64,000 nucleotides of DNA from Escherichia coli (GTDB lineage Bacteria; Pseudomonadota; Gammaproteobacteria; Enterobacterales; Enterobacteriaceae): NCBI RefSeq assembly GCF_024223415.1, contig NZ_CP100500.1, one strand, 5' to 3'. Positions 30,591 through 55,880 of the stretch are shown here, one piece after another; the stretch's first letter is position 1; every line of letters begins with the position of its first letter. The translations under genes and the position numbers were made by a program. The notes under the pieces were generated by a model that was not told the origin of the DNA, searched no databases, and saw only the letters and a list, made by a program, of their open reading frames with translations.

Positions 30591-31274
30591 ATGAAACTGT
30601 TGATTGTCGAAGATGAAAAGAAAACCGGAGAATACTTGACCAAAGGGTTAACCGAAGCCGGTTTTGTGGTCGATTTGGCCGACAACGGGCTGAATGGCTA
30701 CCATCTGGCGATGACCGGAGATTATGACCTGATAATCCTCGATATTATGCTGCCGGACGTGAACGGCTGGGATATCGTGCGCATGTTACGTTCCGCCAAT
30801 AAAGGGATGCCGATTCTGTTGCTTACCGCGCTTGGCACCATTGAACATCGCGTCAAGGGGCTGGAGTTGGGGGCAGATGACTATCTGGTGAAGCCGTTCG
30901 CTTTTGCTGAACTGCTGGCGCGGGTGCGCACTCTACTGCGGCGCGGGGCGGCGGTGATTATCGAAAGTCAGTTTCAGGTTGCCGATTTGATGGTCGATCT
31001 CGTCAGCCGCAAAGTCACCCGCAGCGGCACGCGCATCACTTTGACCAGTAAAGAGTTTACTCTGCTGGAGTTTTTTCTCCGCCATCAGGGCGAAGTGCTG
31101 CCCCGCTCGCTTATCGCCTCGCAGGTATGGGACATGAATTTTGACAGCGACACTAACGCCATTGATGTGGCGGTGAAGCGACTGCGCGGCAAAATCGACA
31201 ACGACTTTGAGCCGAAGCTGATTCAAACCGTGCGCGGCGTGGGTTACATGCTTGAGGTGCCGGATGGTCAGTAA
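30591..31274 (+). CDS. cusR: copper-responsive response regulator CusR (OmpR family)
   Basis: 227-aa ORF; receiver domain plus winged-helix output domain. Confidence 0.93.
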
Positions 31275-32712
31275 GCCATTTCAGCGCCCGTTTTCGCTGG
31301 CAACCCGCCTGACCTTTTTTATCAGCCTGGCCACCATCGCGGCGTTTTTCGCCTTTGCATGGATCATGATCCACTCAGTAAAAGTGCATTTTGCCGAGCA
31401 GGATATTAATGATTTAAAAGAGATTAGCGCCACCCTTGAACGGGTACTAAATCACCCTGACGAAACGCAAGCCCGACGCTTAATGACGCTGGAAGATATC
31501 GTCAGTGGTTATTCCAACGTGTTGATTTCCCTGGCAGATAGCCACGGCAAAACGGTGTATCACTCCCCCGGTGCGCCGGATATCCGCGAGTTTGCACGTG
31601 ATGCCATACCCGATAAAGACGCGCGGGGTGGCGAGGTGTATCTCCTTTCCGGCCCGACGATGATGATGCCAGGCCACGGTCACGGGCATATGGAACACAG
31701 CAACTGGCGGATGATTAACTTGCCGGTTGGCCCGTTGGTGGACGGCAAACCGATTTATACGCTCTACATCGCGCTTTCGATCGATTTTCATCTTCATTAC
31801 ATAAATGATTTGATGAATAAACTTATTATGACCGCATCGGTAATCAGCATCCTGATCGTCTTTATCGTACTGTTGGCGGTACATAAAGGTCACGCGCCGA
31901 TCCGCAGCGTCAGCCGTCAAATCCAGAATATCACCTCGAAAGATCTCGACGTCCGCCTTGACCCGCAGACCGTGCCCATTGAGCTGGAACAGCTGGTACT
32001 GTCGTTCAACCATATGATCGAGCGTATTGAGGATGTCTTTACCCGCCAGTCCAATTTCTCAGCGGACATCGCCCACGAAATTCGCACACCAATTACGAAT
32101 CTCATAACGCAAACCGAAATCGCCCTCAGCCAGTCGCGCAGCCAGAAGGAGCTGGAAGATGTGCTCTACTCTAATCTCGAAGAGCTGACGCGAATGGCGA
32201 AAATGGTCAGCGATATGCTGTTTCTCGCTCAGGCCGATAACAACCAGCTAATCCCCGAAAAGAAAATGCTCAACCTGGCGGATGAAATCGGCAAAGTGTT
32301 CGATTTTTTCGAGGCGTTAGCGGAAGATCGCGGCGTGGAGTTGCAGTTTGTTGGCGACGAGTGCCAGGTTGCGGGCGATCCGCTGATGCTGCGTCGGGCA
32401 TTAAGCAACCTGCTTTCTAATGCCCTGCGTTATACGCCACCCGGAGAGGCTATTGTAGTGCGCTGCCAGACGGTCGAGCATCAGGTGCAAGTTATCGTCG
32501 AAAACCCCGGTACTCCCATTGCGCCCGAGCACTTACCGCGATTGTTTGACCGTTTCTACCGCGTTGACCCTTCCCGCCAGCGAAAAGGCGAAGGTAGCGG
32601 CATTGGGCTGGCGATAGTGAAATCGATTGTTGTCGCACATAAAGGCACGGTTGCAGTAACGTCAGATGCGCGGGGGACAAGGTTTGTGATTGTGTTGCCG
32701 GAGAGGGGGTGA
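31264..32712 (+). CDS. cusS: copper-sensing histidine kinase CusS
   Basis: Start at [10 protein letters not shown] overlapping the cusR stop; two TM segments, H-box [10 protein letters not shown] and ATPase domain. Confidence 0.9.
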
Positions 32713-35234: not shown

Positions 35235-35696
35235 ATGCAGTTCACTTTTAATGAAGGCCACATTCAACTGCCGTCTCAATGGCAGGATCAGTCAATGCAG
35301 GTCCTGGTGTCCACAGATAACAGTGGCATCAACCTGGTCATTACCCGCGAAGCCGTTCCACAGGGAACCCTGACACCAGAGCTGTACCAGGAAACGCTGG
35401 CGCTGTACCAGGGCAAACTTGATGGGTACACCGCACATGCCTGCCGGGAAATCACTCTGGCAGAGGCCCCGGCCTGGCTGCTGGATTATTCCTGGAACGG
35501 TCCGGAAGATGAAGGGAATCAGGGGCGGATTAGCCAGATAGCCGTATTCCAGCGGCGTGGAGATACGCTGCTGACCTTCACTTTCAGCACCTCCTTATCC
35601 CTGAAGAACAGTCAAAAGACGATGCTGCTGGAGGTGATAAAGAGCTTCACCCCGTTGCCACCGGAGAATGATATCCAAAAGGACCAGCCGCGCTGA
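35235..35696 (+). CDS. DUF1795-family (Eag-like) effector chaperone/adaptor
   Basis: 153-aa ORF directly between vgrG and a prePAAR Rhs gene, the usual position and size for Eag/DUF1795 chaperones; family assignment is by context and sequence recollection. Confidence 0.7.
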   Translation: MQFTFNEGHIQLPSQWQDQSMQVLVSTDNSGINLVITREAVPQGTLTPELYQETLALYQGKLDGYTAHACREITLAEAPAWLLDYSWNGPEDEGNQGRISQIAVFQRRGDTLLTFTFSTSLSLKNSQKTMLLEVIKSFTPLPPENDIQKDQPR

Positions 35697-35715: not shown

Positions 35716-38700
35716 ATGAGTGAAGGACCAGGCGGGCCACAGGGAGCGACCGCAGGCGGTACGCTGGCAATGCGAATGCTTTCACAGCAGGCGATGGTCG
35801 CCAGCCAGATGAAACGGGCAGCCAACAACAAAGCCATTGCACAGATGTTGGCATCAAAAAAGTCTGGCCCCCCCGCCGCCAGGCTGGGCGATGAAATTCA
35901 GCACAAGAGTTTTTTGGGGGCGCTGGCAGGGGCCGTGCTGGGGGCGATAGTGACCATCGCAGAAGGTTGCCTGATTATGGCCGCCTGTGCCACCGGCCCT
36001 TATGCGCTGGTTCTGGTGCCTGCGCTGATGTATGCCAGCTATAAGGCGAGTGATTATGTGGAGGAGAAACAGAACCAGCTTGAATCATGGATAAACAGCT
36101 TTTGTGACACGGACGGCGCCATCAATACCGGTTCTGAAAACGTAAAAATTAACGGAAAGCCCGCTGCCAGGGCCGCCGTCACCCTTCCCTCTCCTCCCCC
36201 GCCTGAAGCAATACCCGAAGCCTCACAGGGGGAGCATTCATGGGGTGACATGGCCCTTGACCTGCTTGAATCGGCAGCGGAAAAAGCAGCGCCACTGGCT
36301 AAATCCTGGGGGAACGCTGTTATCACCCTGACGGACAGCAATGCCAGTTTTATGGATCGCGTCAGTGCAGGCGCATCGCTTCTGTTTCCCGCCGGTCCGG
36401 TATTAATGGAGTTTGCCACCATGGTGGGCGGGCGTGGCGAAATCAAAAAAGATGTGGATTTCCCGGAAGCCGGTGAGGACACGGCGCTCTGCGACAAGGA
36501 GAACAAACCACCGAGGATAGCCCAGGGCAGCAGCAACGTCTTTATCAACAATCAGCCTGCCGCGCGCAAGGGCGACAAACTGGAGTGCAGCGCGGCAATC
36601 GTGGAAGGTTCGCCGGACGTCTTTATTGGGGGTGAGCAGGTCACCTATCTGGATATCCAGCCGGAGTTCCCGCCATGGCAGAGAATGATCCTGGGAGGAA
36701 TAACGATAGCCAGCTATCTTCTGCCGCCAGCAGGACTGCTGGGAAAACTGGGGAATCTGGCGAAACTGGGCAAACTGGGAAACCTGCTGGGGAAAAGCGG
36801 GAAGCTGCTGGGCGCAAAACTCGGCGCGTTGCTGGGGAAAACAGGTAAGTCGTTAAAAAGTATTGCCAATAAAGTCATCAGATGGGTAACAGATCCTGTC
36901 GATCCGGTAACCGGCGCGTACTGCGACGAACGTACCGACTTCACCCTGGGCCAGACCCTCCCCCTCTCCTTCACCCGTTTCCACAGTTCTGTACTGCCAC
37001 TGCATGGCCTGACGGGCGTGGGCTGGAGCGACTCCTGGAGCGAATACGCCTGGGTGCGTGAACAGGGAAACCGGGTGGATATCATCAGCCTGGGAGCCAC
37101 GCTGAACTTCGCCTTCGACGGTGAAAGTGATACGGCGGTTAACCCGTATCACGCCCAGTACATTCTGCGCCGCTGCGACGATTACCTGGAGCTGTTCGAC
37201 AGGAATGCACTGAGCAGCCGCTTCTTTTATGACGCCTTTCCGGGAATGCGTCTGCGCCACCCGGTGACTGACGATACCAGCGATGACCGCCTGGCACACA
37301 GCCCCGCAGACCGGATGTACATGCTGGGCGGGATGAGCGACACCGCCAGCAACCGCATCACGTTTGAGCGCGACAGCCAGTACCGGATCACGGGTGTCAG
37401 TCACACCGACGGGATCCGGCTTAAACTGACGTACCACGCCAGCGGCTACCTGAAAGCCATTCACCGCACGGATAACGGCATACAGACGCTGGCGACCTAC
37501 GAACAGGATGCGCGGGGGCGGCTGACAGAAGCGGATGCGCGGCTGGACTACCACCTGTTTTATGAGTACGACGCTGCGGACCGGATCATCCGCTGGTCCG
37601 ATAACGACCAGACGTGGAGCCGTTTCACCTACGATGAACAGGGCCGGTGCGTGACCGTCACCGGGGCGGAGGGCTATTACAACGCCACGCTGGACTATGG
37701 TGACGGCTGCACCACCGTGACGGACGGCAAGGGCATTCACCGTTATTACTATGATCCTGACGGCAATATTCTGCGGGAAGAAGCGCCGGACGGCAGCACC
37801 ACCACGTATGAATGGGATGAATTCCATCACCTGCTGGCCCGCCACTCCCCTGCCAGGCGGGTGGAGAAATTTGAATACAACGCCGCACAGGGTCAGTTAA
37901 GCCGTTACACGGCGGCAGACGGCGCGGAGTGGCAGTACTGCTATGATGAGCGCGGCCTGCTCAGCAACATCACCGACCCTGCCGGGCAGACGTGGACGCA
38001 GCAGTGTGATGAACGCGGCCTGCCGGTAAGTCTGGTGTCGCCACAGGGCGAAGAGACCCGGCTGGCGTACACGCCGCAGGGGCTGCTGTCGGGGATATTC
38101 CGCCAGGATGAACGGCGTCTGGGCATAGAGTACGACCACCACAACCGGCCGGAAACACTCACCGACGTGATGGGCCGTGAACACCACACCGAATACAGCG
38201 GTCACGACCTGCCGGTGAAGATGCGCGGCCCCGGCGGTCAGTCAGTGCGGTTGCAGTGGCAGCAGCACCATAAACTGAGCGGCCTTGAGCGGGCAGGAAC
38301 CGGCGCAGAAGGATTCCGCTATGACCGCCACGGCAACCTGCTGGCGTACACGGACGGTAACGGCGTTGTCTGGACAATGGAATACGGCCCGTTCGATTTG
38401 CCGGTGGCGCGAACGGACGGTGAAGGCCACCGCTGGCAGTACCGCTACGATAAAGACACGCTGCAGCTCACAGAAGTCATTAACCCGCAGGGTGAGTCTT
38501 ATCTTTATATTCTGGACAACTGTGGCCGGGTGACGGAAGAACGTGACTGGGGCGGCGTGGTCTGGCGTTACCGTTATGACGCTGATGGCCTGTGTACCGC
38601 CAGGGTCAACGGCCTGGAGGAAACCATCCTCTACGGCCGGGACGCCGCAGGCCGCCTGGCAGAAGTCATCACGCCGGAAGGTAAAACGCAGTATGCGTAT

Positions 38701-40536
38701 GACAAATCCGGCAGGCTGACGGGTATCTTCAGCCCGGACGGCACATCACAGCGCACCGGCTACGACGAACGCGGGCGGGTGAATGTCACCACTCAGGGCC
38801 GACGGGCCATTGAATACCACTACCCCGACGAACATACCGTCATCCGCTGTATCCTGCCACCGGAAGATGAACGCGACAGACACCCCGATGAATCCCTGCT
38901 GAAAACCACGTACCGCTACAACGCAGCCGGAGAACTGACGGAGGTTATCCTGCCGGGGAATGAGACGCTGACGTTCAGCCGTGATGAGGCAGGACGTGAA
39001 GTGTTCCGGCACAGTAACCGGGGTTTTGCCTGTGAGCAGGGCTGGAATGCAGCCGGCCAGCTTACCAGCCAGCGCGCCGGACTTTTCCCGGAGGAAGCCA
39101 CGTGGGGCGGGCTGGTTCCGTCACTGGTGCGGGAGTACCGTTACGACAGCGCGGGTAATGTGTCAGGCGTCACCAGCCGGGAAGATTACGGACGGGAAAC
39201 ACGGCGGGAATACCGGCTGGACCGGAACGGCCAAGTCACGGCGGTGACAGCCTCAGGCACCGGGCTGGGCTATGGCGAAGGCGATGAGTCCTATGGCTAT
39301 GACAGCTGTGGCTACCTGAAGGCGCAGTCTGCGGGCAGGCACCGGATAAGTGAAGAGACTGACCAGTATGCCGGAGGCCACCGGCTGAAACAGGCCGGAA
39401 ACACGCAGTATGACTATGACGCCGCAGGCCGGATGGTCAGCCGGACAAAACACCGTGACGGCTACCGCCCGGAAACAGAGCGGTTCCGGTGGGACAGCCG
39501 GGACCAGCTGACCGGGTATTGCAGCGCACAGGGTGAGCTGTGGGAATACCGCCACGACGCCAGCGGCAGACGAACAGAGAAACGCTGCGACCGGAAGAAA
39601 ATCCGCTTCACGTATCTGTGGGACGGCGACAGTATTGCGGAAATCCGGGAATACCGCGATGATGAACTGTACAGCGTACGGCACCTGGTGTTTAACGGCT
39701 TTGAGCTGATAAGCCAGCAGTTCAGCCGGGTACGGCAGCCGCACCCGTCCGTGGCTCCGCAGTGGGTGACGCGGACGAATCATGCGGTGAGCGACCTGAC
39801 GGGCCGGCCGCTGATGCTCTTTAACAGTGAAGGTAAAACCGTCTGGCAGCCGGGACAGACCAGCCTGTGGGGGCTGGCACTCAGCCTGCCCGCAGACACA
39901 GACTACCCGGACCCGCGCGGGGAACTGGACCCGGAAGCCGACCCCGGCCTGCTGTATGCGGGACAGTGGCAGGATGCGGAATCCGGGCTGTGCTATAACC
40001 GGTTCCGGTATTACGATCCGGAAACCGGAATGTACCTGGTGAGTGATCCGCTGGGGTTGCAGGGAGGGGAGCAGACTTACCGGTATGTGCCTAATCCTTG
40101 TGGGTATGTTGATCCCTCTGGGTTGGCAATGACTTCGAAAATAGTCAATAAACTACCTTCTGCAAAAGATCTTGCTACAAAAAGGGCCAGTGAGTTATTA
40201 GCAAAGGCAACATCTAATACCCAGCGAAGTAAATTACCAAGGGCAGTTTCAGCTGTTGTTGATAAGAGAACTGGCAAAATATATTATGGAGAAAGTGGCT
40301 GGCCTCACCCAACAGAAATACATCCTACATTACAAAATAATATGCCATCAGCCAGTAAGGAGCGATGGGCAATCGAGAACTGTGCGGAATTTAAAGCTGT
40401 AAATGAAGCTTTGAAGGCAAATGCGAAAATTAGTGATCTTGAAGTTCATACAGTATTGGTAAAAACAGGCGAAGCTTTTCCAATGTGTAAGAATTGTCAA
40501 ATTTCAATATTTGGCGCTGTTGTTACAAGCGGGTGA
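35716..40536 (+). CDS. rhs: Rhs polymorphic toxin with N-terminal prePAAR/TM/PAAR region, YD-repeat shell and a variable C-terminal tip resembling a deaminase-fold toxin
   Basis: 1606-aa ORF; prePAAR motif AARLGDEIQH followed by hydrophobic helices; YD repeats; core ends with DPLGL...DPSGLA (about 40045-40119); after that GC content drops and the tip carries C-A-E (40381..40389) and P-M-C-K-N-C (40480..40497) about 34 residues apart, the zinc-ligand pattern of cytidine/adenosine deaminases. Confidence 0.9.
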   Translation: MSEGPGGPQGATAGGTLAMRMLSQQAMVASQMKRAANNKAIAQMLASKKSGPPAARLGDEIQHKSFLGALAGAVLGAIVTIAEGCLIMAACATGPYALVLVPALMYASYKASDYVEEKQNQLESWINSFCDTDGAINTGSENVKINGKPAARAAVTLPSPPPPEAIPEASQGEHSWGDMALDLLESAAEKAAPLAKSWGNAVITLTDSNASFMDRVSAGASLLFPAGPVLMEFATMVGGRGEIKKDVDFPEAGEDTALCDKENKPPRIAQGSSNVFINNQPAARKGDKLECSAAIVEGSPDVFIGGEQVTYLDIQPEFPPWQRMILGGITIASYLLPPAGLLGKLGNLAKLGKLGNLLGKSGKLLGAKLGALLGKTGKSLKSIANKVIRWVTDPVDPVTGAYCDERTDFTLGQTLPLSFTRFHSSVLPLHGLTGVGWSDSWSEYAWVREQGNRVDIISLGATLNFAFDGESDTAVNPYHAQYILRRCDDYLELFDRNALSSRFFYDAFPGMRLRHPVTDDTSDDRLAHSPADRMYMLGGMSDTASNRITFERDSQYRITGVSHTDGIRLKLTYHASGYLKAIHRTDNGIQTLATYEQDARGRLTEADARLDYHLFYEYDAADRIIRWSDNDQTWSRFTYDEQGRCVTVTGAEGYYNATLDYGDGCTTVTDGKGIHRYYYDPDGNILREEAPDGSTTTYEWDEFHHLLARHSPARRVEKFEYNAAQGQLSRYTAADGAEWQYCYDERGLLSNITDPAGQTWTQQCDERGLPVSLVSPQGEETRLAYTPQGLLSGIFRQDERRLGIEYDHHNRPETLTDVMGREHHTEYSGHDLPVKMRGPGGQSVRLQWQQHHKLSGLERAGTGAEGFRYDRHGNLLAYTDGNGVVWTMEYGPFDLPVARTDGEGHRWQYRYDKDTLQLTEVINPQGESYLYILDNCGRVTEERDWGGVVWRYRYDADGLCTARVNGLEETILYGRDAAGRLAEVITPEGKTQYAYDKSGRLTGIFSPDGTSQRTGYDERGRVNVTTQGRRAIEYHYPDEHTVIRCILPPEDERDRHPDESLLKTTYRYNAAGELTEVILPGNETLTFSRDEAGREVFRHSNRGFACEQGWNAAGQLTSQRAGLFPEEATWGGLVPSLVREYRYDSAGNVSGVTSREDYGRETRREYRLDRNGQVTAVTASGTGLGYGEGDESYGYDSCGYLKAQSAGRHRISEETDQYAGGHRLKQAGNTQYDYDAAGRMVSRTKHRDGYRPETERFRWDSRDQLTGYCSAQGELWEYRHDASGRRTEKRCDRKKIRFTYLWDGDSIAEIREYRDDELYSVRHLVFNGFELISQQFSRVRQPHPSVAPQWVTRTNHAVSDLTGRPLMLFNSEGKTVWQPGQTSLWGLALSLPADTDYPDPRGELDPEADPGLLYAGQWQDAESGLCYNRFRYYDPETGMYLVSDPLGLQGGEQTYRYVPNPCGYVDPSGLAMTSKIVNKLPSAKDLATKRASELLAKATSNTQRSKLPRAVSAVVDKRTGKIYYGESGWPHPTEIHPTLQNNMPSASKERWAIENCAEFKAVNEALKANAKISDLEVHTVLVKTGEAFPMCKNCQISIFGAVVTSG

Positions 40537-40540
40537 TTAT

Positions 40541-40978
40541 ATGTGTGAATTAATTAATGAAGCATCAAAATATGGGAAAGTCAATGTAAGAAAGATGGAC
40601 ATTGATTTGTGTTGTAAAAAAATAGAGGAAGAAGGGTATTCTGTTTTCGTTGCGTTCTATGATTTTATAAAAAAATATGGCGGTTTATATGGCTTTCATT
40701 CAGCTTACAAAGACACCACTATAAGTGAGGCTTTTTTTATAGATCCAGAAAGGGCCTCTAATCGCATTTTTATAGAAAGAGTCAATGATTATATTGAGAG
40801 AGCTGGTTACAATATGATTCCTGTTGGCGAGTGCAGTAATGGTCATATCACATTATTATATGGGGAAAATAATGTGATATATGGCGGCTTGGATGATTAT
40901 CTTTGGAAGTATGGGGATAATTTATCTTCATCAATTGATATATTGATTAATGGTAAGGAGGCAGTTGAAATTCCGTAA
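40541..40978 (+). CDS. putative cognate immunity protein for the Rhs tip
   Basis: AT-rich ORF starting 5 bp after the rhs stop (ATG at 40541; an upstream TTG at 40511 would overlap rhs); position and composition typical of Rhs immunity genes; family unknown. Confidence 0.6.
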   Translation: MCELINEASKYGKVNVRKMDIDLCCKKIEEEGYSVFVAFYDFIKKYGGLYGFHSAYKDTTISEAFFIDPERASNRIFIERVNDYIERAGYNMIPVGECSNGHITLLYGENNVIYGGLDDYLWKYGDNLSSSIDILINGKEAVEIP

Positions 40979-40984
40979 GGCCAA

Positions 40985-42909
40985 CTGCCAGGGCCAACGG
41001 CCTGGAGGAAACCATCCTCAACAGCCGGGACGCCGCAGGCCGCCTGGCAGAAGTCATCTCGCCGGAAGGCAAAACGCAGTATGCGTATGACAAATCCGGC
41101 AGGCTGACGGGTATCTTCAGCCCGGACGGTACATCACAGCGCACCGGCTATGATGAACGCGGGCGGGTGAATGTCACCACTCAGGGCCGACGGGCCATTG
41201 AATACCACTACCCCGATGAACACACCGTCATCCGCTGTATCCTGCCACCGGAAGATGAACGCGACAGACACCCCGATGAATCCCTGCTGAAAACCACATA
41301 CCGCTACAACACCGCCGGAGAACTGACGGAGGTCATTCTGCCGGGGGATGAGACGCTGACGTTCAGCCGTGATGAGGCGGGACGTGAAGTGTTCCGGCAC
41401 AGTAACCGGGGTTTTGCCTGTGAGCAGGGCTGGAATGCAGCCAGCCAGCTTGTCACCCAGCGCGCCGGATTTTTCCCGGAGGAAACCACATGGGGCGGGC
41501 TGCTCCCCTCACTGGTACGGGAGTACCGTTACGACAGCGCGGGCAATGTGTCGGCTGTCACCAGCCGGGAAGATTACGGACGGGAAACACGGCGGGAATA
41601 CCGGCTGGACCGGAACGGCCATGTCACGGCGGTGACAGCCTCAGGCACCGGGCTGGGCTATGGCGAAGGCGATGAGTCCTATGGCTATGACAGCTGCGGC
41701 TACCTGAAGGCGCAGTCTGCGGGCAGGCACCGGATAAGTGAAGAGACTGACCAGTATGCCGGAGGCCACCGGCTGAAACAGGCCGGAAACACGCAGTATG
41801 ACTATGACGCCGCAGGCCGGATGGTCAGCCGGACAAAACACCGTGACGGCTACCGCCCGGAAACAGAGCGGTTCCGGTGGGACAGCCGGGACCAGCTGAC
41901 CGGGTATTGCAGCGCACAGGGTGAGCAGTGGGAATACCGCCACGACGCCAGCGGCAGACGGACGGAAAAACGCTGTGACCGGAAGAAAATCCGTTTTACG
42001 TACCTGTGGGACGGCGACAGTATTGCGGAAATCCGGGAATACCGCGATGATGAACTGTACAGCGTACGGCACCAGGTGTTTAACGGCTTTGAGCTGATAA
42101 GCCAGCAGTTCAGCCGGGTACGGCAGCCGCACCCGTCCGTGGCCCCGCAGTGGGTGACGCGGACGAATCACGCGGTGAGCGACCCGACGGGCCGCCCGCT
42201 GATGCTCTTTAACAGTGAAGGCAAGACGGTCTGGCGGCCGGGGCAGACCAGCCTGTGGGGGCTGGCACTCAGCCTGCCCGCAGACACCGACGACCCGGAC
42301 CCGCGCGGGGAACTGGACGCGGAAGCCGACCCCGGCCTGCTGTATGCAGGACAGTGGCGGGATGGGGAATCCGGGCTGTGCTATAACCGGTTCAGGTACT
42401 ACGAGCCGGAAACCGGAATGTACCTGGTGAGTGATCCACTGGGGTTGCTGGGGGGTGAGCAGACTTACCGGTATGTGCCTAATCCACTGGGTTGGATTGA
42501 CCAGTATGGACTTGCTGGTTGCCCCAGAGCTCTGGCAAGGGCAATGAAACGGGCTAACAGAAACCTAGCTAAGAGTGCCGGATACATGAATCGAGCTTGG
42601 TATAAATTCAAAGGTTCTGCCGCCCATCATATTGTTGCTTGGGATGACCCCCGTGCTTTAGGCGCAAGAAAAATTCTGGAAAAATATGGTATACACATTG
42701 ATTCCGCAGAAAATGGAATATTTTTGAAACATGTAGATCCAAACTCTCTTCAGCCAGGATCTTATCATCGTGTTATTCATACGAACAAATATTATGCTGA
42801 TGTTGAGGCACGACTCGCAGACGCAGCTAAGGCTAATGGGAAACAAGGTGTTCTTGATGAGTTAGATGCTATCAGGGATGACCTGCTTTTTAATAGACTA
42901 ATTTATTAA
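40985..42909 (+). pseudogene. orphan rhs fragment (about 1.5 kb of core plus a distinct tip of the AHH nuclease family), no N-terminal region
   Basis: Nucleotides about 40988-42500 are near-identical to the main rhs at about 38599-40115; after its own DPLGL motif the tip differs and contains GSAAHHIVAWDD (AHH at 42622..42630), then ENGIFL and SYHRVIH, matching the HNH-like AHH family; longest internal ORF is 41167..42909. Confidence 0.7.
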
Positions 42910-42922
42910 TAAGGGCATAGTA

Positions 42923-43456
42923 ATGAATGTTTATTTAATTCGGCATGATGTGGACAACTTCAAGTTTTACTTGCAAGACGAGAGTGACTTTCTTTCAGTT
43001 GCTGCTTTTGATTTTTGTGGAGAGTCTCTATTTAATGGATGGAAACCATACAAAATAGAGCTATTTAAAGGAAAAACTAAAGCTGAGAAATCATTAAACG
43101 GGGATTTTAATTCATCATGTTTTAGTCCAGGATTATTATACGTCGAACATTCTCTCGCAGATGTATTATCTCGTCAGGCAAATGATATTGAGTTATTAAA
43201 AGTAATCACCAGTGATGATCGTGATTTTTATTATGCAAACGTGGTAGGGAAAATACCAGCCTTACATTATAACAACAGACAAGAGCTACAAATTATGAGT
43301 AGAACACAAGAATATAAATTCAATAACTCCATAAATGAAATGTTAATATTTCGTGATAAAACATTACCTTCAAACTATTTTGTTACAGATCGTTTTGTGG
43401 ATATTTTTCAGAATGATTTTCGTGGGGTAATTTTTAAAAAAGTTGGTGAGATATAA
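42923..43456 (+). CDS. putative immunity protein for the orphan AHH-nuclease tip
   Basis: 177-aa AT-rich ORF immediately downstream of the orphan tip; family unknown. Confidence 0.6.
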   Translation: MNVYLIRHDVDNFKFYLQDESDFLSVAAFDFCGESLFNGWKPYKIELFKGKTKAEKSLNGDFNSSCFSPGLLYVEHSLADVLSRQANDIELLKVITSDDRDFYYANVVGKIPALHYNNRQELQIMSRTQEYKFNNSINEMLIFRDKTLPSNYFVTDRFVDIFQNDFRGVIFKKVGEI

Positions 43457-43482
43457 CTTAATGCATTGAACATCTAACCCGT

Positions 43483-44015
43483 ACCGCTATGACCGCCACG
43501 GTAACCTGCTGGCGTACACGGACGGTAACGGCGTTGTCTGGACGATGGAATACGGCCCGTTCGATTTGCCGGTCGCGCGAACGGACGGTGAAGGCCACCG
43601 CTGGTGGTACCGCTACGATAAAGACACGCTGCAACTGACAGAAGTCATCAACCCGCAGGGTGAGTCATATCTTTATGTTCTGGATAACTGTGGCCGGGTG
43701 ACGGAAGAGCGTGACTGGGGCGGCGTGGTCTGGCGTTACCGCTATGACGCCGATGGCCTCTGTACCGCCAGGGTCAACGGACTGGAGGAAACCATCCTCT
43801 ACAGCCGGGACGCTGCAGGGCGCCTGGCAGAAGTCATCACGCCGGAAGGGAAAACGCAGTATGCGTATGACAAATCCGGCAGGCTGACGGGTATCTTCAG
43901 CCCGGACGGCATATCACAGCGCACCGGCTATGACGAACGCGGGCGGGTGAATGTCACCACTCAGGGCCGACGGGCAGGGAAAGATCATCAGAAGTTCACT
44001 TTTTGTACTAAATAA
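43483..44015 (+). pseudogene. second rhs core fragment (about 0.5 kb) truncated at the H-repeat insertion
   Basis: Near-identical to the main rhs at about 38316-38808; ORF 43545..44015 ends in a short unrelated tail (GKDHQKFTFCTK) where the H-repeat element begins. Confidence 0.65.
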
Positions 44016-45300
44016 TTCGCATTTTATGTTTAAAAATTGAGATATTCCTCATTATCCGAAGCTGTTTTTTATTGCTTATACATGATCAAATACTCCTTAC
44101 ATAATTAAGGAGAACAAAATGGAACTTAAAAAATTGATGGAACATATTTCTATTATCCCCGATTACAGACAAGCCTGGAAAGTGGAACATAAATTATCAG
44201 ATATTCTACTGTGGACTATTTGTGCCGTTATTTCTGGTGCAGAAGGTTGGGAAGATATAGAGGATTTTGGGGAAACACATCTCGATTTTTTGAAGCAATA
44301 TGGTGATTTTGAAAATGGTATTCCTGTTCACGATACCATTGCCAGAGTTGTATCCTGTATCAGTCCTGCAAAATTTCACGAGTGCTTTATTAACTGGATG
44401 CGTGACTGCCATTCTTCAGATGATAAAGACGTCATTGCAATTGATGGAATAACGCTCCGGCACTCTTATGATAAGAGTCGTCGCAGGGGAGCGATTCATG
44501 TCATTAGTGCGTTCTCAACAATGCACAGTCTGGTCCTCGGACAGATCAGGACGGATGAGAAATCTAATGAGATTACAGCTATTCCTGAACTTCTTAACAT
44601 GATGGATATTAAAGGAAAAATCATCACAACTGATGCGATGGGTTGCCAGAAAGATATTGCAGAAAAGATACAAAAACAGGGAGGGGATTATTTATTCGCT
44701 GTAAAGGGAAATCAGGGGCGACTAAATAAAGCCTTTGAGGAAAAATTCCCGCTGAAAGAATTAAATAATCCAGAGCATGACAGTTACGCAATCAGTGAAA
44801 AGAGTCACGGCAGAGAAGAAATCCGTCTTCATATTGTTTACGATGTCCCTGATGAACTTATTGATTTCACGTTTGAATGGAAAGGGCTGAAGAAATTATG
44901 CGTGGCAGTCTCCTTTCGGTCCATAATAGCAGAACAAAAGAAAGAGCCAAAAATGACGGTCAGATATTATATCAGTTCTGCTGATTTAACCGCAGAGAAG
45001 TTCGCCACAGCAATCCGAAACCACTGGCACGTGGAGAATAAGCTGCACTGGCGTCTGGACGTGGTAATGAATGAAGACGACTGCAAAATAAGAAGAGGAA
45101 ATGCAGCAGAATTATTTTCAGGGATACGGCACATTGCTATTAATATTTTGACGAATGATAAGGTATTCAAGGCAGGGTTAAGACGTAAGATGCGAAAAGC
45201 AGCCATGGACAGAAACTATCTGGCGTCAGTCCTTGCGGGGAGCGGGCTTTCGTAATCTTGCCCTGCCTGCTCACCTCCAGGCACTTCCACTACATCATGA
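44016..45300 (+). mobile_element. H-repeat (H-rpt) insertion element, boundaries approximate
   Basis: Encloses the H-rpt transposase ORF; left edge set where rhs homology stops (about 43976-44016); right edge not defined by recognisable terminal repeats. Confidence 0.45.
44119..45255 (+). CDS. H-repeat-associated protein (ISAs1-family transposase, YhhI/YdcC-like)
   Basis: 378-aa ORF closely resembling the H-rpt proteins found next to K-12 Rhs elements; sits at the distal end of the Rhs island. Confidence 0.85.
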
Positions 45301-45520
45301 CCTGATCGGTGCCACCACTCCTCTTCACTATGACGTTAACCTCCCCTCCTTGACACCACGCTTTTGTCTACATTCTACGCAAACGGCAACTTTTATAACC
45401 AGTGTAAAAATAACGTGCCGCAATAGTCATACCTATTAATGGTAAAAAGCTGTCACAATTCATAAAAAACCTTAATATACGCCACCCTAAACATAACCAG
45501 CGTTAATGTAAGGTTTTTGT

Positions 45521-47758
45521 GTGGACTGGCTTCTTGATGTTTTTGCTACCTGGCTCTACGGCTTAAAAGTAATCGCGATAACGTTAGCGGTCATCATGTT
45601 CATCAGCGGGCTGGACGATTTTTTTATTGATGTCGTCTACTGGGTACGCCGCATTAAACGCAAGTTGAGTGTTTATCGCCGCTACCCGCGAATGAGTTAC
45701 CGCGAACTGTATAAACCAGATGAAAAACCGTTAGCGATTATGGTTCCGGCGTGGAATGAAACGGGCGTCATCGGCAATATGGCCGAGCTGGCGGCGACCA
45801 CGCTCGACTACGAAAACTATCATATCTTTGTTGGCACCTACCCCAACGACCCGGACACTCAGCGTGATGTTGACGAAGTGTGCGCTCGCTTCCCGAATGT
45901 GCATAAGGTAGTCTGCGCGCGTCCTGGCCCCACCAGCAAAGCCGACTGTCTGAACAACGTGCTGGACGCCATCACCCAGTTTGAGCGTAGCGCCAATTTC
46001 GCATTTGCTGGTTTTATTCTGCATGACGCCGAAGATGTGATTTCACCGATGGAGTTGCGTCTGTTCAACTATCTGGTCGAGCGTAAAGATCTGATTCAGA
46101 TCCCGGTATACCCATTCGAACGCGAATGGACGCACTTCACCAGCATGACTTACATTGATGAGTTTTCAGAACTGCATGGCAAAGATGTTCCGGTGCGTGA
46201 AGCCCTCGCCGGACAAGTACCCAGCGCAGGCGTCGGCACCTGTTTCAGCCGCCGCGCCGTGACCGCTCTGTTAGCTGATGGTGACGGTATTGCTTTCGAC
46301 GTGCAAAGTCTTACTGAAGATTACGACATTGGCTTCCGCCTGAAAGAAAAAGGTATGACGGAAATTTTTGTCCGTTTTCCGGTGGTGGATGAAGCCAAAG
46401 AACGCGAGCAGCGTAAATTTTTACAGCACGCACGGACGTCAAACATGATCTGCGTGCGCGAATATTTCCCCGATACCTTTTCGACTGCGGTTCGACAAAA
46501 ATCCCGCTGGATCATCGGCATTGTTTTCCAGGGCTTTAAAACCCATAAATGGACCTCCAGCCTGACGCTGAACTACTTTCTCTGGCGCGACCGCAAAGGG
46601 GCAATCAGTAACTTTGTCAGCTTCCTCGCGATGCTGGTGATGATCCAGCTTTTGCTGTTGCTGGCGTATGAAAGTTTGTGGCCCGATGCCTGGCATTTCC
46701 TTTCTATTTTTAGCGGCAGCGCATGGTTAATGACCCTGCTGTGGCTAAACTTTGGCTTGATGGTTAACCGCATCGTGCAGCGGGTGATTTTCGTCACTGG
46801 CTACTACGGCCTCACGCAGGGGCTACTATCTGTCCTGCGTCTTTTCTGGGGCAACCTGATTAACTTCATGGCCAACTGGCGCGCGTTAAAACAGGTACTT
46901 CAACACGGCGATCCACGTCGCGTCGCGTGGGATAAAACAACGCATGACTTCCCCAGCGTCACTGGCGATACCCGCTCGTTGCGCCCGTTAGGTCAAATTC
47001 TGCTGGAAAATCAGGTCATCACTGAAGAACAGCTCGATACAGCACTGCGTAATCGCGTCGAAGGTCTACGCCTGGGCGGTTCAATGCTGATGCAGGGGCT
47101 GATTAGCGCCGAGCAGCTGGCACAGGCGCTGGCAGAGCAAAACGGCGTGGCGTGGGAATCCATCGATGCCTGGCAGATCCCGTCCTCGCTGATTGCCGAA
47201 ATGCCGGCCTCCGTGGCGCTGCATTATGCGGTACTGCCGCTGCGTCTGGAAAATGATGAGTTAATTGTCGGCAGTGAAGATGGTATTGACCCGGTTTCGC
47301 TGGCGGCCCTGACGCGTAAAGTCGGACGCAAAGTGCGTTACGTCATTGTTCTGCGGGGACAAATTGTCACGGGGTTACGTCACTGGTATGCACGCCGACG
47401 CGGTCACGATCCGCGGGCAATGTTGTACAATGCGGTTCAGCATCAGTGGCTCACGGAACAGCAGGCCGGTGAAATCTGGCGGCAATATGTGCCGCATCAG
47501 TTCCTGTTCGCCGAAATACTGACCACGCTCGGTCATATTAATCGTTCAGCAATTAACGTGTTGTTATTGCGCCATGAACGCAGTTCTCTGCCGCTCGGCA
47601 AGTTTTTGGTCACCGAAGGCGTTATCAGCCAGGAAACGTTGGATCGCGTCCTGACAATTCAACGCGAATTACAAGTTTCGATGCAATCACTATTACTCAA
47701 AGCAGGTTTAAACACAGAACAGGTTGCGCAACTGGAGTCCGAAAATGAAGGAGAATAA
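45521..47758 (+). CDS. nfrB: bacteriophage N4 adsorption protein B (inner-membrane glycosyltransferase-like) NfrB
   Basis: 745-aa ORF with GTG start; N-terminal TM and glycosyltransferase family 2-like region; followed by nfrA. Confidence 0.88.
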   Translation: MDWLLDVFATWLYGLKVIAITLAVIMFISGLDDFFIDVVYWVRRIKRKLSVYRRYPRMSYRELYKPDEKPLAIMVPAWNETGVIGNMAELAATTLDYENYHIFVGTYPNDPDTQRDVDEVCARFPNVHKVVCARPGPTSKADCLNNVLDAITQFERSANFAFAGFILHDAEDVISPMELRLFNYLVERKDLIQIPVYPFEREWTHFTSMTYIDEFSELHGKDVPVREALAGQVPSAGVGTCFSRRAVTALLADGDGIAFDVQSLTEDYDIGFRLKEKGMTEIFVRFPVVDEAKEREQRKFLQHARTSNMICVREYFPDTFSTAVRQKSRWIIGIVFQGFKTHKWTSSLTLNYFLWRDRKGAISNFVSFLAMLVMIQLLLLLAYESLWPDAWHFLSIFSGSAWLMTLLWLNFGLMVNRIVQRVIFVTGYYGLTQGLLSVLRLFWGNLINFMANWRALKQVLQHGDPRRVAWDKTTHDFPSVTGDTRSLRPLGQILLENQVITEEQLDTALRNRVEGLRLGGSMLMQGLISAEQLAQALAEQNGVAWESIDAWQIPSSLIAEMPASVALHYAVLPLRLENDELIVGSEDGIDPVSLAALTRKVGRKVRYVIVLRGQIVTGLRHWYARRRGHDPRAMLYNAVQHQWLTEQQAGEIWRQYVPHQFLFAEILTTLGHINRSAINVLLLRHERSSLPLGKFLVTEGVISQETLDRVLTIQRELQVSMQSLLLKAGLNTEQVAQLESENEGE

Positions 47759-50717
47759 CCTTAATCGCGTCATCGGATGGTCTGGTTTACTGCTGACGTC
47801 TTTATTGAGTACCAGCGCACTCGCAGACAATATCGGCACCAGCGCAGAAGAGCTGGGGCTGAGCGATTATCGCCATTTTGTTATTTATCCCCGTCTCGAT
47901 AAGGCGCTGAAGGCACAGAAAAATAACGACGAAGCAACCGCCATCCGCGAATTTGAATATATACACCAGCAGGTGCCGGATAATATTCCGCTGACTTTAT
48001 ACCTTGCGGAAGCCTATCGCCATTTTGGTCATGATGACCGGGCGCGGCTGTTGCTTGAGGATCAACTGAAACGTCACCCAGGAGATGCCCGACTTGAGCG
48101 CAGTCTGGCGGCTATTCCAGTTGAAGTGAAAAGCGTTACGACAGTTGAAGAACTGCTTGCCCAGCAAAAAGCGTGCGATGCTGCGCCGACCCTGCGTTGT
48201 CGCAGTGAAGTCGGGCAGAATGCCCTGCGGCTGGCACAGTTACCTGTCGCCAGAGCGCAACTGAACGATGCGACGTTTGCTGCATCGCCGGAAGGAAAAA
48301 CGCTGCGAACCGATCTGCTGCAACGGGCAATCTACCTGAAACAATGGTCCCAGGCAGATACGCTATACAATGAAGCACGCCAGCAGAACACATTAAGCGC
48401 GGCAGAACGCCGTCAGTGGTTTGACGTGCTTCTTGCCGGGCAGCTGGACGATCGGATCCTGGCGCTGCAATCACAGGGGATCTTCACTGATCCTCAGTCA
48501 TATATTACTTACGCGACCGCGCTGGCTTATCGTGGCGAAAAAGCACGCCTCCAGCATTATCTCATTGAAAATAAGCCGCTGTTTACCACGGACGCACAAG
48601 AGAAAAGTTGGCTCTATCTGTTATCTAAATACAGCGCCAACCCCGTTCAGGCATTGGCGAATTATACGGTGCAGTTTGCCGATAACCGCCAGTATGTTGT
48701 TGGCGCGACGCTACCGGTGCTGTTAAAAGAAGGTCAGTACGACGCAGCGCAAAAACTGCTCGCCACCCTCCCCGCCAATGAAATGCTTGAGGAGCGTTAT
48801 GCTGTCAGCGTGGCGACCCGTAACAAGGCTGAAGCTCTGCGTCTGGCACGCTTGCTGTATCAGCAAGAACCGGCAAATCTTACCCGCCTGGATCAACTGA
48901 CCTGGCAACTGATGCAGAACGAGCAGTCACGCGAAGCTGCCGATTTATTGCTGCAACGCTATCCTTTCCAGGGCGATGCGCGTGTCAGCCAGACTTTAAT
49001 GGCGCGACTGGCGTCTCTTCTGGAAAGTCATCCTTACCTGGCAACTCCAGCGAAGGTGGCGATTTTATCGAAACCCTTACCGCTGGCGGAGCAACGTCAG
49101 TGGCAAAGTCAGTTGCCGGGTATTGCAGATAATTGCCCGGCAATAGTTCGCTTGCTGGGCGATATGTCGCCTTCCTACGATGCTGCCGCCTGGAACCGTC
49201 TGGCAAAGTGTTATCGGGATACGCTACCCGGTGTGGCGTTGTATGCATGGCTTCAGGCCGAACAACGACAACCGAACGCCTGGCAACATCGTGCGGTAGC
49301 CTATCAGGCGTATCAGGTTGAGGACTACGCCACCGCACTGGCGGCCTGGCAGAAAATCAGTCTTCACGACATGAGCAATGAGGATCTGCTTGCTGCTGCC
49401 AATACCGCCCAGGCGGCAGGAAATGGTGCGGCTCGCGATCGCTGGTTACAACAGGCAGAACAACGTGGACTGGGAAACAATGCCCTCTACTGGTGGCTGC
49501 ATGCGCAACGTTACATTCCTGGTCAGCCGGAACTCGCACTGAACGATCTCACGCGCTCAATCAATATTGCGCCTTCTGCCAACGCTTACGTTGCGCGGGC
49601 GACAATTTATCGCCAACGTCATAATGTCCCGGCCGCGGTGAGTGATTTGCGCGCCGCGCTGGAACTGGAACCGAATAATAGCAACACCCAGGCAGCGCTT
49701 GGTTACGCCTTGTGGGATAGCGGTGATATCGCACAGTCGCGGGAAATGCTCGAACAGGCGCATAAAGGGCTACCGGACGATCCGGCACTGATCCGACAAC
49801 TGGCCTATGTGAACCAGCGTCTGGATGACATGCCTGCGACGCAGCACTACGCCCGGCTGGTGATTGATGACATTGATAATCAGGCGCTGATAACCCCACT
49901 CACCCCAGAGCAAAATCAGCAACGCTTCAATTTCCGCCGTCTGCATGAGGAGGTCGGTCGCCGCTGGACGTTCAGTTTCGATTCTTCCATCGGCTTGCGT
50001 TCCGGCGCAATGAGTACCGCTAACAATAATGTCGGCGGCGCAGCGCCAGGGAAAAGCTATCGTAGCTACGGACAACTGGAAGCCGAGTACCGCATCGGAC
50101 GCAATATGCTGCTGGAAGGCGACCTGCTCTCAGTCTATAGCCGCGTCTTTGCCGATACCGGAGAAAACGGGGTGATGATGCCGGTGAAAAATCCGATGTC
50201 CGGCACCGGTCTGCGCTGGAAGCCGCTGCGCGATCAGATCTTTTTCCTCGCCGTCGAACAGCAGTTGCCGCTGAACGGGCAAAATGGCGCATCCGATACA
50301 ATGCTGCGCGCCAGCGCCTCATTCTTTAATGGCGGCAAATACAGCGACGAATGGCACCCGAACGGTTCAGGCTGGTTTGCCCAAAACCTGTACCTCGATG
50401 CGGCGCAATATATCCGCCAGGATATTCAGGCGTGGACGGCAGATTATCGCGTCAGCTGGCATCAGAAGGTAGCTAACGGACAGACTATTGAGCCTTACGC
50501 TCACGTTCAGGACAACGGCTATCGTGATAAAGGCACTCAGGGCGCGCAGCTTGGCGGTGTCGGGGTCCGCTGGAATATTTGGACCGGCGAGACGCACTAC
50601 GACGCCTGGCCGCACAAAGTCAGTCTCGGCGTCGAGTATCAACATACCTTTAAGGCGATTAATCAACGTAACGGAGAGCGCAACAACGCGTTTCTCACCA
50701 TTGGAGTGCACTGGTAA
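47745..50717 (+). CDS. nfrA: bacteriophage N4 adsorption outer-membrane protein NfrA
   Basis: Start at MKENNLNRVIGWSGLLLTSLLSTSALA (signal peptide); TPR-rich; overlaps the nfrB end. Confidence 0.88.
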   Translation: MKENNLNRVIGWSGLLLTSLLSTSALADNIGTSAEELGLSDYRHFVIYPRLDKALKAQKNNDEATAIREFEYIHQQVPDNIPLTLYLAEAYRHFGHDDRARLLLEDQLKRHPGDARLERSLAAIPVEVKSVTTVEELLAQQKACDAAPTLRCRSEVGQNALRLAQLPVARAQLNDATFAASPEGKTLRTDLLQRAIYLKQWSQADTLYNEARQQNTLSAAERRQWFDVLLAGQLDDRILALQSQGIFTDPQSYITYATALAYRGEKARLQHYLIENKPLFTTDAQEKSWLYLLSKYSANPVQALANYTVQFADNRQYVVGATLPVLLKEGQYDAAQKLLATLPANEMLEERYAVSVATRNKAEALRLARLLYQQEPANLTRLDQLTWQLMQNEQSREAADLLLQRYPFQGDARVSQTLMARLASLLESHPYLATPAKVAILSKPLPLAEQRQWQSQLPGIADNCPAIVRLLGDMSPSYDAAAWNRLAKCYRDTLPGVALYAWLQAEQRQPNAWQHRAVAYQAYQVEDYATALAAWQKISLHDMSNEDLLAAANTAQAAGNGAARDRWLQQAEQRGLGNNALYWWLHAQRYIPGQPELALNDLTRSINIAPSANAYVARATIYRQRHNVPAAVSDLRAALELEPNNSNTQAALGYALWDSGDIAQSREMLEQAHKGLPDDPALIRQLAYVNQRLDDMPATQHYARLVIDDIDNQALITPLTPEQNQQRFNFRRLHEEVGRRWTFSFDSSIGLRSGAMSTANNNVGGAAPGKSYRSYGQLEAEYRIGRNMLLEGDLLSVYSRVFADTGENGVMMPVKNPMSGTGLRWKPLRDQIFFLAVEQQLPLNGQNGASDTMLRASASFFNGGKYSDEWHPNGSGWFAQNLYLDAAQYIRQDIQAWTADYRVSWHQKVANGQTIEPYAHVQDNGYRDKGTQGAQLGGVGVRWNIWTGETHYDAWPHKVSLGVEYQHTFKAINQRNGERNNAFLTIGVHW

Positions 50718-51608
50718 ATGCGTAAGTTCATTTTCGTATTGCTGACACTGCTTTTGGTCAGCCCTTTTTCCTTTGCGATGAAAGGTATTATCTGGCAACC
50801 ACAAAACCGAGATAGTCAGGTTACCGATACCCAGTGGCAGGGGCTGATGAGTCAGTTACGTTTGCAAGGCTTCGATACCCTGGTTTTGCAATGGACCCGT
50901 TACGGCGATGCATTTACCCAGCCAGAACAGCGCACGTTATTGTTTAAGCGGGCCGCAGCTGCGCAACAGGCTGGTCTGAAGCTGATTGTCGGGCTGAACG
51001 CCGATCCGGAATTTTTTATGCACCAGAAACAGTCGTCCGCAGCGCTGGAAAGCTATCTTAATCGCCTGCTGGCTGCCGATCTCCAGCAAGCCAGATTATG
51101 GAGCGCCGTACCTGGCGTAACGCCGGATGGCTGGTACATCAGCGCGGAAATTGACGACCTGAACTGGCGCAGCGAAGCCGCCCGTCAGCCTTTGCTAACA
51201 TGGTTAAACAACGCGCAGCGGCTGATTAGCGATGTTTCAGCAAAACCGGTTTATATCAGTAGTTTTTTCGCCGGAAACATGTCGCCAGATGGCTATCGCC
51301 AACTGCTGGAACACGTTAAAGCAACCGGCGTTAATGTCTGGGTACAGGATGGCAGCGGCGTGGATAAACTTACCGCTGAACAGCGTGAACGTTATCTACA
51401 GGCCAGCGCCGATTGCCAAAGCTCCGCCCCAGCAAGCGGCATTGTTTATGAACTGTTTGTCGCCGGCAAAGGCAAAACCTTTACAGCGAAACCGAAACCG
51501 GACGCAGAAATTGCCTCGCTGTTAGCGAAACGTTCCTCTTGCGGTAAAGACACTCTCTATTTCTCTCTGCGCTATTTGCCCGTCGCGCACGGCATTCTCG
51601 AGTATTAA
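50718..51608 (+). CDS. ybcH: YbcH (DUF4434 family)
   Basis: 296-aa ORF with signal peptide, immediately after nfrA. Confidence 0.82.
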   Translation: MRKFIFVLLTLLLVSPFSFAMKGIIWQPQNRDSQVTDTQWQGLMSQLRLQGFDTLVLQWTRYGDAFTQPEQRTLLFKRAAAAQQAGLKLIVGLNADPEFFMHQKQSSAALESYLNRLLAADLQQARLWSAVPGVTPDGWYISAEIDDLNWRSEAARQPLLTWLNNAQRLISDVSAKPVYISSFFAGNMSPDGYRQLLEHVKATGVNVWVQDGSGVDKLTAEQRERYLQASADCQSSAPASGIVYELFVAGKGKTFTAKPKPDAEIASLLAKRSSCGKDTLYFSLRYLPVAHGILEY

Positions 51609-51790
51609 ATCTCCTCCAGGTAAGTCGGGTACGACCTGGCTTACCTCTTTCGCTCTCGTCAGAATTCCATCAAGATTAATTGCTAAAAAGCGTGCTAAAG
51701 AAAGAAGATCGTTATCGGCGAACGGGCCGATCACTCATGCAGGAAGCATAGATCCTTTGAGCGGAGTTTCTGATATCTGAGGAGTGCGAA

Positions 51791-52552: not shown

Positions 52553-52597
52553 AGGGCAAAGCGGAAACGGATAAGACGGGCATAAATGAAGAAGAAA

Positions 52598-52642
52598 TGG
52601 CGCGCCCTGCAGGATTCGAACCTGCGGCCCACGACTTAGAAG
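52598..52642 (-). other. partial tRNA-Arg (argU-like) 3' fragment, likely a lambdoid prophage attachment-site remnant
   Basis: Reverse complement CTTCTAAGTCGTGGGCCGCAGGTTCGAATCCTGCAGGGCGCGCCA is the anticodon loop (UCU), T-arm and acceptor 3' end of a tRNA-Arg; the 5' half of the tRNA is absent. Confidence 0.75.
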
Positions 52643-54019: not shown

Positions 54020-54268
54020 GAACGCCAACTAAAATTTCCCCGAGGTGAAAATCGCCCCGGGGAATAACTAGCCATTTCAATGTAACAATTAACCCTTAAA
54101 ATAAACCCAGAAGGTTATTAACTAAATCACATAAAAAACCATCAATTATAGTATGTATAAAATAGGCGACAGCAACCCAATTACAAATTAATGGTTCCAG
54201 AATATCACATCAAAAAAAACGCTGTATAATATTATAATTAACATGTAGACAACTTGTAATAAACATTA

Positions 54269-55824: not shown

Positions 55825-55880
55825 TTAACCCCTTGTAATTCATTGCCATAATTGATTTAATTCACAAATAAAACTATAAC

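Follow-up and report, generated by a model that had tools for sequence, protein, structure and literature searches.

In a 64,000-nucleotide stretch of Escherichia coli DNA (contig NZ_CP100500.1 of assembly GCF_024223415.1; hereafter the window), a full-length rhs toxin gene is followed by an orphan rhs fragment that shares its core and carries a different toxin tip, and we consider it very probable that the shared core of this main-plus-orphan array serves as a working homologous-recombination substrate for tip switching. The repeats, their identity and their common reading frame are seen directly, and so is a near-identical isolate, NCTC10444, whose locus holds exactly the product of such an exchange. 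The array comprises a PAAR-Rhs effector gene whose tip is deaminase-like, its SUKH-3 immunity gene, then a presumably silent 3' rhs fragment with an AHH tip and a small open reading frame (ORF), and then a further fragment, tipless and cut by the insertion sequence (IS) ISEc1. In the proposed mechanism, an in-frame crossover between main and orphan core would take out the deaminase tip and SUKH-3 along with part of one repeat, 2388 bp in all, and would leave a full-length Rhs bearing the AHH tip. The array was probably first built by lateral acquisition of tips through C-terminal displacement, and the fused Rhs-AHH protein is predicted to be exported and toxic. The components of the array are the following:

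35716-40536, plus strand: main full-length PAAR-Rhs effector gene, 1606 amino acids (aa) (Pfam PAAR_motif at 59.3 bits, DUF6531, and ten RHS_repeat matches, 1.4e-74)
38316-38807, plus strand: copy 1 of the 492-bp repeat pair, inside the main core (blastn match to 43484-43975)
38596-40097, plus strand: copy 1 of the 1502-bp repeat pair, inside the main core (blastn match to 40984-42485)
38830-38909, plus strand: crossover interval, an 80-bp block in which main and orphan match perfectly in KV7-type relatives (orphan partner 41218-41297)
40098-40536, plus strand: main tip, deaminase-like, the last ~146 residues (Pfam YwqJ-deaminase PF14431; GC content 39.6%)
40541-40978, plus strand: SUKH-3 immunity gene of the main tip (Pfam SUKH-3 PF14433, 1.1e-12, 48.8 bits against a cut-off of 23; GC ~34%; annotated as SUKH-3 in relatives)
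40984-42485, plus strand: orphan rhs core part, copy 2 of the 1502-bp repeat, starting 5 nt past the SUKH-3 stop and lacking the N-terminal PAAR and plug region
42486-42909, plus strand: AHH nuclease tip of the orphan (Pfam AHH PF14412, 3e-15, 56.6 bits against a cut-off of 22.3; SAAHHIV motif; GC 42.5%)
42923-43456, plus strand: imm2, presumed AHH immunity gene, 177 aa, 13 nt past the tip stop codon (GC 31%)
43484-43974, plus strand: tipless rhs core fragment, 491 bp, second member of the 492-bp repeat pair, with a final 212 bp that match the orphan start
43975-45265, plus strand: ISEc1 (ISAs1 family, 'H-repeat'), 1291 bp, with a transposase ORF at 44119-45255 (Pfam DDE_Tnp_1_assoc and DDE_Tnp_1)

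Across 5426 complete E. coli genomes, which form the base of our survey, the array was found at 99.5-99.9% identity in KV7, NCTC9112, and SCU-316. The cusS-nfrB locus of NCTC10444, present there in a single copy, is exactly 2388 bp shorter; it lacks both the deaminase tip and SUKH-3 and runs from one Rhs-AHH gene through the 177-aa ORF and the tipless fragment to the IS. When alleles were typed at the 66 sites that separate main from orphan core, NCTC10444 carried main alleles at the first 10 sites (to 38829) and orphan alleles at the other 56 (from 38910). In the main core of the window, T at 38835 is a private change that narrows the window's own crossover interval to 38830-38834; since it is confined to the window, the switch falls within the 80-bp block of perfect identity in the relatives. 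A 2388-bp deletion simulated in KV7, with the crossover placed in this block, differed from NCTC10444 at three positions over 16.9 kb: two substitutions and a homopolymer indel (G5 to G6). In other strains that have AHH as main tip, main and orphan alleles are mixed in a scrambled fashion, and thus the clean switch is specific to the KV7/NCTC10444 pair. The initial annotation had predicted that recombination between the copies would fuse the full-length Rhs to the AHH tip, with loss of the deaminase tip and its immunity gene, and NCTC10444 bears out this prediction, the only SUKH-3 gene having been lost as well. The fusion allele was seen in this related isolate, represented by a public assembly, and not as a subpopulation of the strain from which the window derives. 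A comparison of 13KWH46 with GF8, considered as a second clean recombinant pair, was ambiguous and was rejected, as the upstream parts were not comparable.

A second kind of exchange may be visible in SCU-316. Its main gene carries orphan alleles only at 38910, 38923, and 38925, and its orphan keeps the same alleles, a non-reciprocal pattern as would be left by a short gene-conversion tract between the copies. Because this assembly contains many indel errors, the tract may instead be an artefact of short-read polishing. Separately, the orphan of the window has T at 41392, which is the main allele at the homologous position 39004 (the relatives have C); either conversion of this one site or a simple mutation is possible.

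The repeats were mapped by self-versus-self blastn of the rhs region and then of the whole window, and a repeat finder gave the same result. The largest pair spans 1502 bp (38596-40097 and 40984-42485) and is 95.6% identical, with 66 mismatches and 0 gaps. A 492-bp pair (38316-38807 and 43484-43975) is 95.5% identical with 22 mismatches and 0 gaps, and a 212-bp pair (40984-41195 and 43764-43975; 94.8%) joins the orphan start to the end of the tipless fragment. The E-values of these matches, from 0 to 1e-92, exclude chance, and no further copy of the rhs core beyond these three was found by self-blastn in the 64-kb window. It had been claimed beforehand that the main core at about 38599-40115 recurs at about 40988-42500 and that its segment at about 38316-38808 recurs at about 43483-43975. 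Both repeats were recovered, the coordinates first given lying within ~4-18 bp of those found, and the self-comparison proposed at that stage established that the copies are collinear with the main gene, gap-free, and 94.8-95.6% identical. All core copies lie on the plus strand and keep the Rhs reading frame. The offset between main and orphan is 2388 bp, or 3x796, and is therefore in frame, and the longest blocks of perfect main/orphan identity measure 229 bp and then 80 bp.

Nucleotide homology between main and orphan core stops at 40097/42485, just 5' of the PxxxxD(P/Q)xGL motif that marks the core/tip boundary, which reads PNPCGYVDPSGL in the main Rhs and PNPLGWIDQYGL in the orphan. Synonymous divergence (dS) between core copies is 0.12-0.16, and the ratio of nonsynonymous to synonymous divergence (dN/dS) is 0.09-0.19 (0.18 for main versus orphan and 0.09 for main versus tipless fragment); with this dS and low dN/dS, the copies look like diverged functional alleles that were brought together and not like a decaying local duplicate. 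The GC content is 61-62% in the cores, 40-43% in the tips, and 31-34% in the immunity genes, compared to 52% for the window, and the contrast of tips and immunity genes with the cores points to their lateral origin. ORFs on the minus strand inside the core (e.g., 39253-39783 and 41641-42171) were taken as by-products of the GC-rich repeat sequence.

The rhs island sits between cusS (31252-32712) and nfrB (45521-47758), a site described as E. coli rhs locus 4, for which a homologous-recombination model has been put forward (Jackson et al., 2009; PMC2935791). The main gene has the domains of an Rhs polymorphic toxin, with a YD/RHS shell, a core domain ending in PxxxxDPxGL, and a variable tip. 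Its N-terminal PAAR domain and the presence of vgrG and a DcrB-family gene directly upstream mark it as a PAAR-Rhs effector. NCBIfam models YD_repeat_2x and Rhs_assc_core (TIGR03696, 70 bits) also matched the protein, and the match to prePAAR_I was weak (23.3 bits against a cut-off of 25). The two upstream genes are:

[quoted passage not shown]
35235-35696, plus strand: DcrB/DUF1795-type (Eag-like) chaperone gene (Pfam DcrB 2.4e-27; 'DcrB-related protein' in relatives), whose product is, by its family, a presumed effector chaperone

The main tip had been called deaminase-like at the outset. Its translation shows CAE and PMCKNC 33 residues apart, where the family has the zinc-binding motifs [HC]AE and PCxxC; the family assignment is weak, the match to PF14431 (E=9e-5, 23.1 bits) falling under the cut-off of 25.9. 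Searches with the tip gave no match in the PDB or NCBIfam, and its AlphaFold2 single-sequence model, with a pLDDT of 42, was too poor for a fold search. The start codon of the SUKH-3 gene lies 4 nt past the rhs stop codon.

The orphan begins at core codon 961, and its frame is open from 40984 to 42909 (641 codons); the KV7 annotation calls it 'incomplete; missing N-terminus'. A 580-aa ORF begins at an in-frame GTG at 41167. The 177-aa ORF behind the AHH tip, which had no Pfam or NCBIfam family match, accompanies this tip in 88 genomes and is presumably its immunity gene. The fragment thus has the make-up of an rhs orphan, as it lies downstream of the main gene on the same strand, shares its core, lacks the N-terminus, and ends in another tip, behind which lies a small ORF of its own.

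The third core copy is of a different nature. It has neither a tip nor an immunity gene, on the right it stops at the left inverted repeat of ISEc1, and the KV7 annotation describes it as 'missing N-terminus and C-terminus'. On the left, 27 nt past the stop of the 177-aa ORF, it starts at what looks like a displacement junction. ISEc1 is bounded by the terminal inverted repeats CAGGGAAAGATCA and CAGGGCAAGATTA, at 43975 and 45265, and its transposase is annotated as ISAs1/ISEc1 in relatives. A 1291-bp ISAs1-family H-repeat is found at the distal end of the E. coli K-12 RhsB, RhsC, and RhsE elements. Unlike in these elements, the IS end here directly abuts the rhs core, at coordinates that vary by lineage. 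In IAI1-type arrays, the left end of ISEc1 abuts core position 37621, with the right flank upstream of nfrB unchanged, and in CP53 and ~40 other genomes it abuts the main gene itself at core position ~39120, with the same right flank. Because one ISEc1 end meets three core coordinates in three lineages (at 43975 in the window, 9919 in the IAI1 extract, and ~8424 in that of the third lineage) while the right flank is constant, the comparison suggests repeated, nested IS-adjacent deletions into the rhs array. The layout had been read in the initial annotation as the outcome of serial C-terminal displacement. This view agrees with the main-plus-orphan array, the GC contrast, and the small ORF that follows each tip, and it fails for the third copy, which is tipless and was cut by ISEc1.

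As the third copy is tipless, recombination with it would disarm the main Rhs, joining the truncated gene to ISEc1. A crossover between main gene and tipless fragment would delete 5168 bp with both tips and both immunity genes, and the truncated Rhs would end in ...GRRAGKDHQKFTFCTK. Synthetic junction queries were used to look for such products in the genomes surveyed. None carried the exact main/fragment product of the array in the window, and none covered at least 80% of the query for the orphan/fragment product (SUKH-3, 212 bp of core, and ISEc1). Two groups of genomes were considered as candidates and rejected. About 44 genomes have a tipless main Rhs beside the IS, and these do not stem from the array of the window as main/fragment products, because the junction lies at core position ~39120 and not at 38807. 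The IAI1-type arrays were dismissed as orphan/fragment products, since their fragment corresponds to core 37290-37621 and has a different junction. In these arrays, the SUKH-3 module ends 8 nt past the SUKH-3 stop (IAI1 extract 9570-9590), as it does in the window (40979-40986). This identical module end is joined to core 38596 in the window and to core 37290 in IAI1, and one module end with two junctions implies that a single displacement history is insufficient.

The complete deaminase tip with SUKH-3 was present in only 4 of the 5426 genomes, and another 361 genomes hold only the last 127 bp of this tip together with SUKH-3. Most carriers of SUKH-3 at this locus thus have a remnant of the tip, so the immunity gene has outlived the toxin in many lineages. 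In these remnant arrays (IAI1 extract 8847-9131), the 127-bp remnant is preceded by a core scrap of 83% identity and a main Rhs with a restriction-endonuclease-fold tip. The AHH tip and the ORF downstream of it occur in 92 of the 5426 genomes, as main tip in some and as orphan in others. A different rearrangement was found in O78 strain 3, in which 42301-45839 is deleted across the 11-13-bp microhomology ACGACCCGGAC (window 42288-42300 and 45844-45856; extract of its locus, 11173-11223). The deleted stretch covers the last part of the orphan core, the AHH tip and the 177-aa ORF behind it, as well as the tipless fragment, ISEc1, and ~320 bp at the start of nfrB. The deletion fuses the orphan core ORF, from the GTG at 41167, in frame to nfrB, giving a 3036-bp gene annotated as 'glycosyltransferase family 2 protein'.

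Some points weigh against the proposed explanation. The fusion gene of NCTC10444 is annotated as frameshifted, owing to the change from G5 to G6 in the homopolymer near 38954; either the sequence is wrong there or the gene has truly been inactivated, and in the latter case it would be a pseudogene and the exchange would look like decay and not like a useful switch. NCTC10444 is also not among the four genomes with the complete deaminase/SUKH-3 module and has kept no parental-type copy of it, so the recombinant would be sensitive to the toxin of its parent. The flanks of six related strains (11.7 kb) differ by 0-4 singleton substitutions and give a star tree, and hence the flank phylogeny does not decide between deletion and insertion. 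Finally, a search for promoters and terminators that could give the orphan its own expression found sites no more frequently than in shuffled sequence; consensus promoters between 40000 and 45600 numbered 8, with 9.3 predicted by the shuffles, and the orphan tip had no conspicuous one upstream of it.

It is conceivable, if on balance unlikely, that the array is a fossil of past tip displacements and that its rearrangements are ordinary decay, with no selection for switching. The annotated frameshift in NCTC10444, the fusion to nfrB in O78 strain 3, the ~44 genomes in which a tipless main Rhs abuts the IS, and the 361 genomes that retain only the end of the deaminase tip with SUKH-3 all fit this explanation. 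It accords less well with the intact orphan frame, AHH tip, and downstream ORF and the low dN/dS of the core copies. Moreover, the crossover in NCTC10444 is in frame and yields an Rhs-AHH gene with its architecture complete, the frameshift may be spurious, as it falls in a run of G in an assembly of the PacBio era, and experiments in Salmonella showed selection for such recombinants (PMC3967940).

We likewise regard it as a lesser possibility that the orphan module works in place, conferring immunity against AHH-armed neighbours, with a tip that may be expressed internally as part of a toxin-antitoxin-like pair, and that the repeats are incidental. For Salmonella orphans, an added, non-exclusive role as internally expressed toxin-antitoxin-like modules has been described, together with internal promoters of rhs tips, and a P2 promoter upstream of Rhs toxins has been reported in E. 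coli as well (PMC7043789). The 580-aa ORF opened by the in-frame GTG would suit such expression, and with the AHH tip and imm2 in 92 genomes, immunity could matter. The promoter scan, by contrast, revealed nothing notable upstream of the orphan tip, and a function in place leaves the NCTC10444 product unexplained. It is also compatible with a role of the same module as recombination substrate.

With regard to the direction of the event, a deletion is favoured over the reverse insertion, because it requires nothing from outside. Improbable as we think it, a single gene like that of NCTC10444 might be ancestral, and the array might have been gained by single-crossover integration of a 2388-bp circle holding a core fragment, the deaminase tip, and SUKH-3. 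Both directions would give the same allele pattern, the star-shaped flank phylogeny leaves the event unpolarised, AHH is the main tip in many other strains while the complete deaminase module is confined to four genomes, and a circle model has been published (PMC2935791). The donor circle would, however, have to be an exact complementary chimera that switches in the same 80-bp block and would have to be transferred into this clone, whereas spontaneous deletion between 1.5-kb direct repeats needs no external DNA; furthermore, the array is present in five of the six near-identical strains. It is very improbable that the NCTC10444 locus is an assembly collapse and the SCU-316 tract a polishing artefact, so that no natural recombinant has been seen: although both are known from public assemblies alone, SCU-316 is rich in indel errors where the locus is AT-rich, and the homopolymer indel of NCTC10444 lies 45-125 bp downstream of the switch interval, a collapse should give mixed or noisy alleles and not one clean switch with no other substitution in 1.5 kb, and long reads easily bridge repeats that lie 2.4 kb apart and differ by 4.4%.

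If the shared core is the working substrate for tip switching that we propose, it is tempting to go one step further and to speculate, tentatively, that KV7 and NCTC10444 represent a natural near-isogenic Rhs switch that occurred by simple deletion, without a protective duplication such as that in Salmonella, and that, taken with the conversion tract of SCU-316 and the alleles truncated by the IS, the nested repeats might act as a three-way switch, able to swap the tip, patch the core, or disarm the gene, at observable frequency in wild populations. Were this true, the recombinant lineage would have exchanged one weapon for another and would thereby have turned sensitive to its own parent.

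The closest known counterpart is the STM0291/STM0292 locus of Salmonella Typhimurium LT2, where recombination between main gene and orphan over 522 bp at 95% identity was selected experimentally (Koskiniemi et al., 2014; PMC3967940). As in LT2, a T6SS-linked full-length rhs gene and its immunity gene are followed by an orphan 3' fragment with a ~95% identical core, a different tip, and its own immunity gene, and homologous recombination puts the orphan tip on the main gene at the expense of the main tip and main immunity gene. The E. coli array differs in that the homology is three times longer (1502 versus 522 bp), an additional tipless fragment was cut by ISEc1, and the tips are deaminase-like and AHH; the exchange is also known here from sequence alone. 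In addition, it is seen as a fixed simple deletion in a separate isolate that has lost the main immunity gene, whereas in LT2 recombination was proposed to follow a duplication of the locus, with immunity kept (PMC3967940).

At the same chromosomal site, Jackson et al. (2009; PMC2935791) described arrays with dissociated tips on same-clade core fragments of variable length downstream of an intact gene, and the array in the window agrees with these. Homologous recombination between cores is the engine of their model as well, in which KV7 and NCTC10444 would represent the excision (or integration) step. While that model was circumstantial, one step is seen here as a one-event difference between near-identical genomes. 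Two further features set the window apart from the published arrays: the right end of the last fragment was made by an IS and not by displacement, and one module end occurs at two core coordinates (window versus IAI1), which a single circle history does not cover. A similar arrangement is known from the orphan cdiA-CT/cdiI and rhs-CT/rhsI modules (Poole et al., 2011; PMC3150448), in which silent tip/immunity pairs lie in tandem downstream of a full-length toxin gene and each keeps a conserved stretch that might mediate recombination; the contact-dependent inhibition (CDI) and Rhs systems of that study are from other species and loci.

Since the mechanism is established (Jackson et al., 2009; Koskiniemi et al., 2014), the array is a clean new instance of it and not a new kind of system, and the understanding of the Rhs family is unchanged by it. 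Specific to this case are the pair of tips, the 1.5-kb homology, the IS-truncated third copy, and a pair of natural isolates one exchange apart. Orphan arrays of rhs genes are thought to be reservoirs of alternative toxins, and most of the direct evidence of switching has been obtained by evolving one Salmonella strain in the laboratory. Public genomes now supply an E. coli pair that differs by exactly the predicted exchange and thus offers a ready-made test system, suited to competition between parent and recombinant, to the role of the lost SUKH-3, and to the rate of recombination across 95.6% identical repeats.

Further downstream in the window, envY is followed by ompT (omptin, 53066-54019), an AraC-type regulator gene, and a methyltransferase gene (flank region 53066-63975). 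No tRNA gene was found within 50000-56000; in relatives, a tRNA-Arg gene lies after envY. The tail genes of a lambdoid prophage then follow on the minus strand. They comprise a tail fibre assembly gene (56604-57188), the gene of a 918-aa side tail fibre, in which a 132-bp tandem repeat occupies 58452-58750, then lom (60003-60602), and, at 60673-63975, a gene for J-type tip attachment. A 157-bp direct repeat of 86% identity (55575-55731 and 56624-56780) lies on either side of the methyltransferase gene, beside the tail fibre assembly gene.

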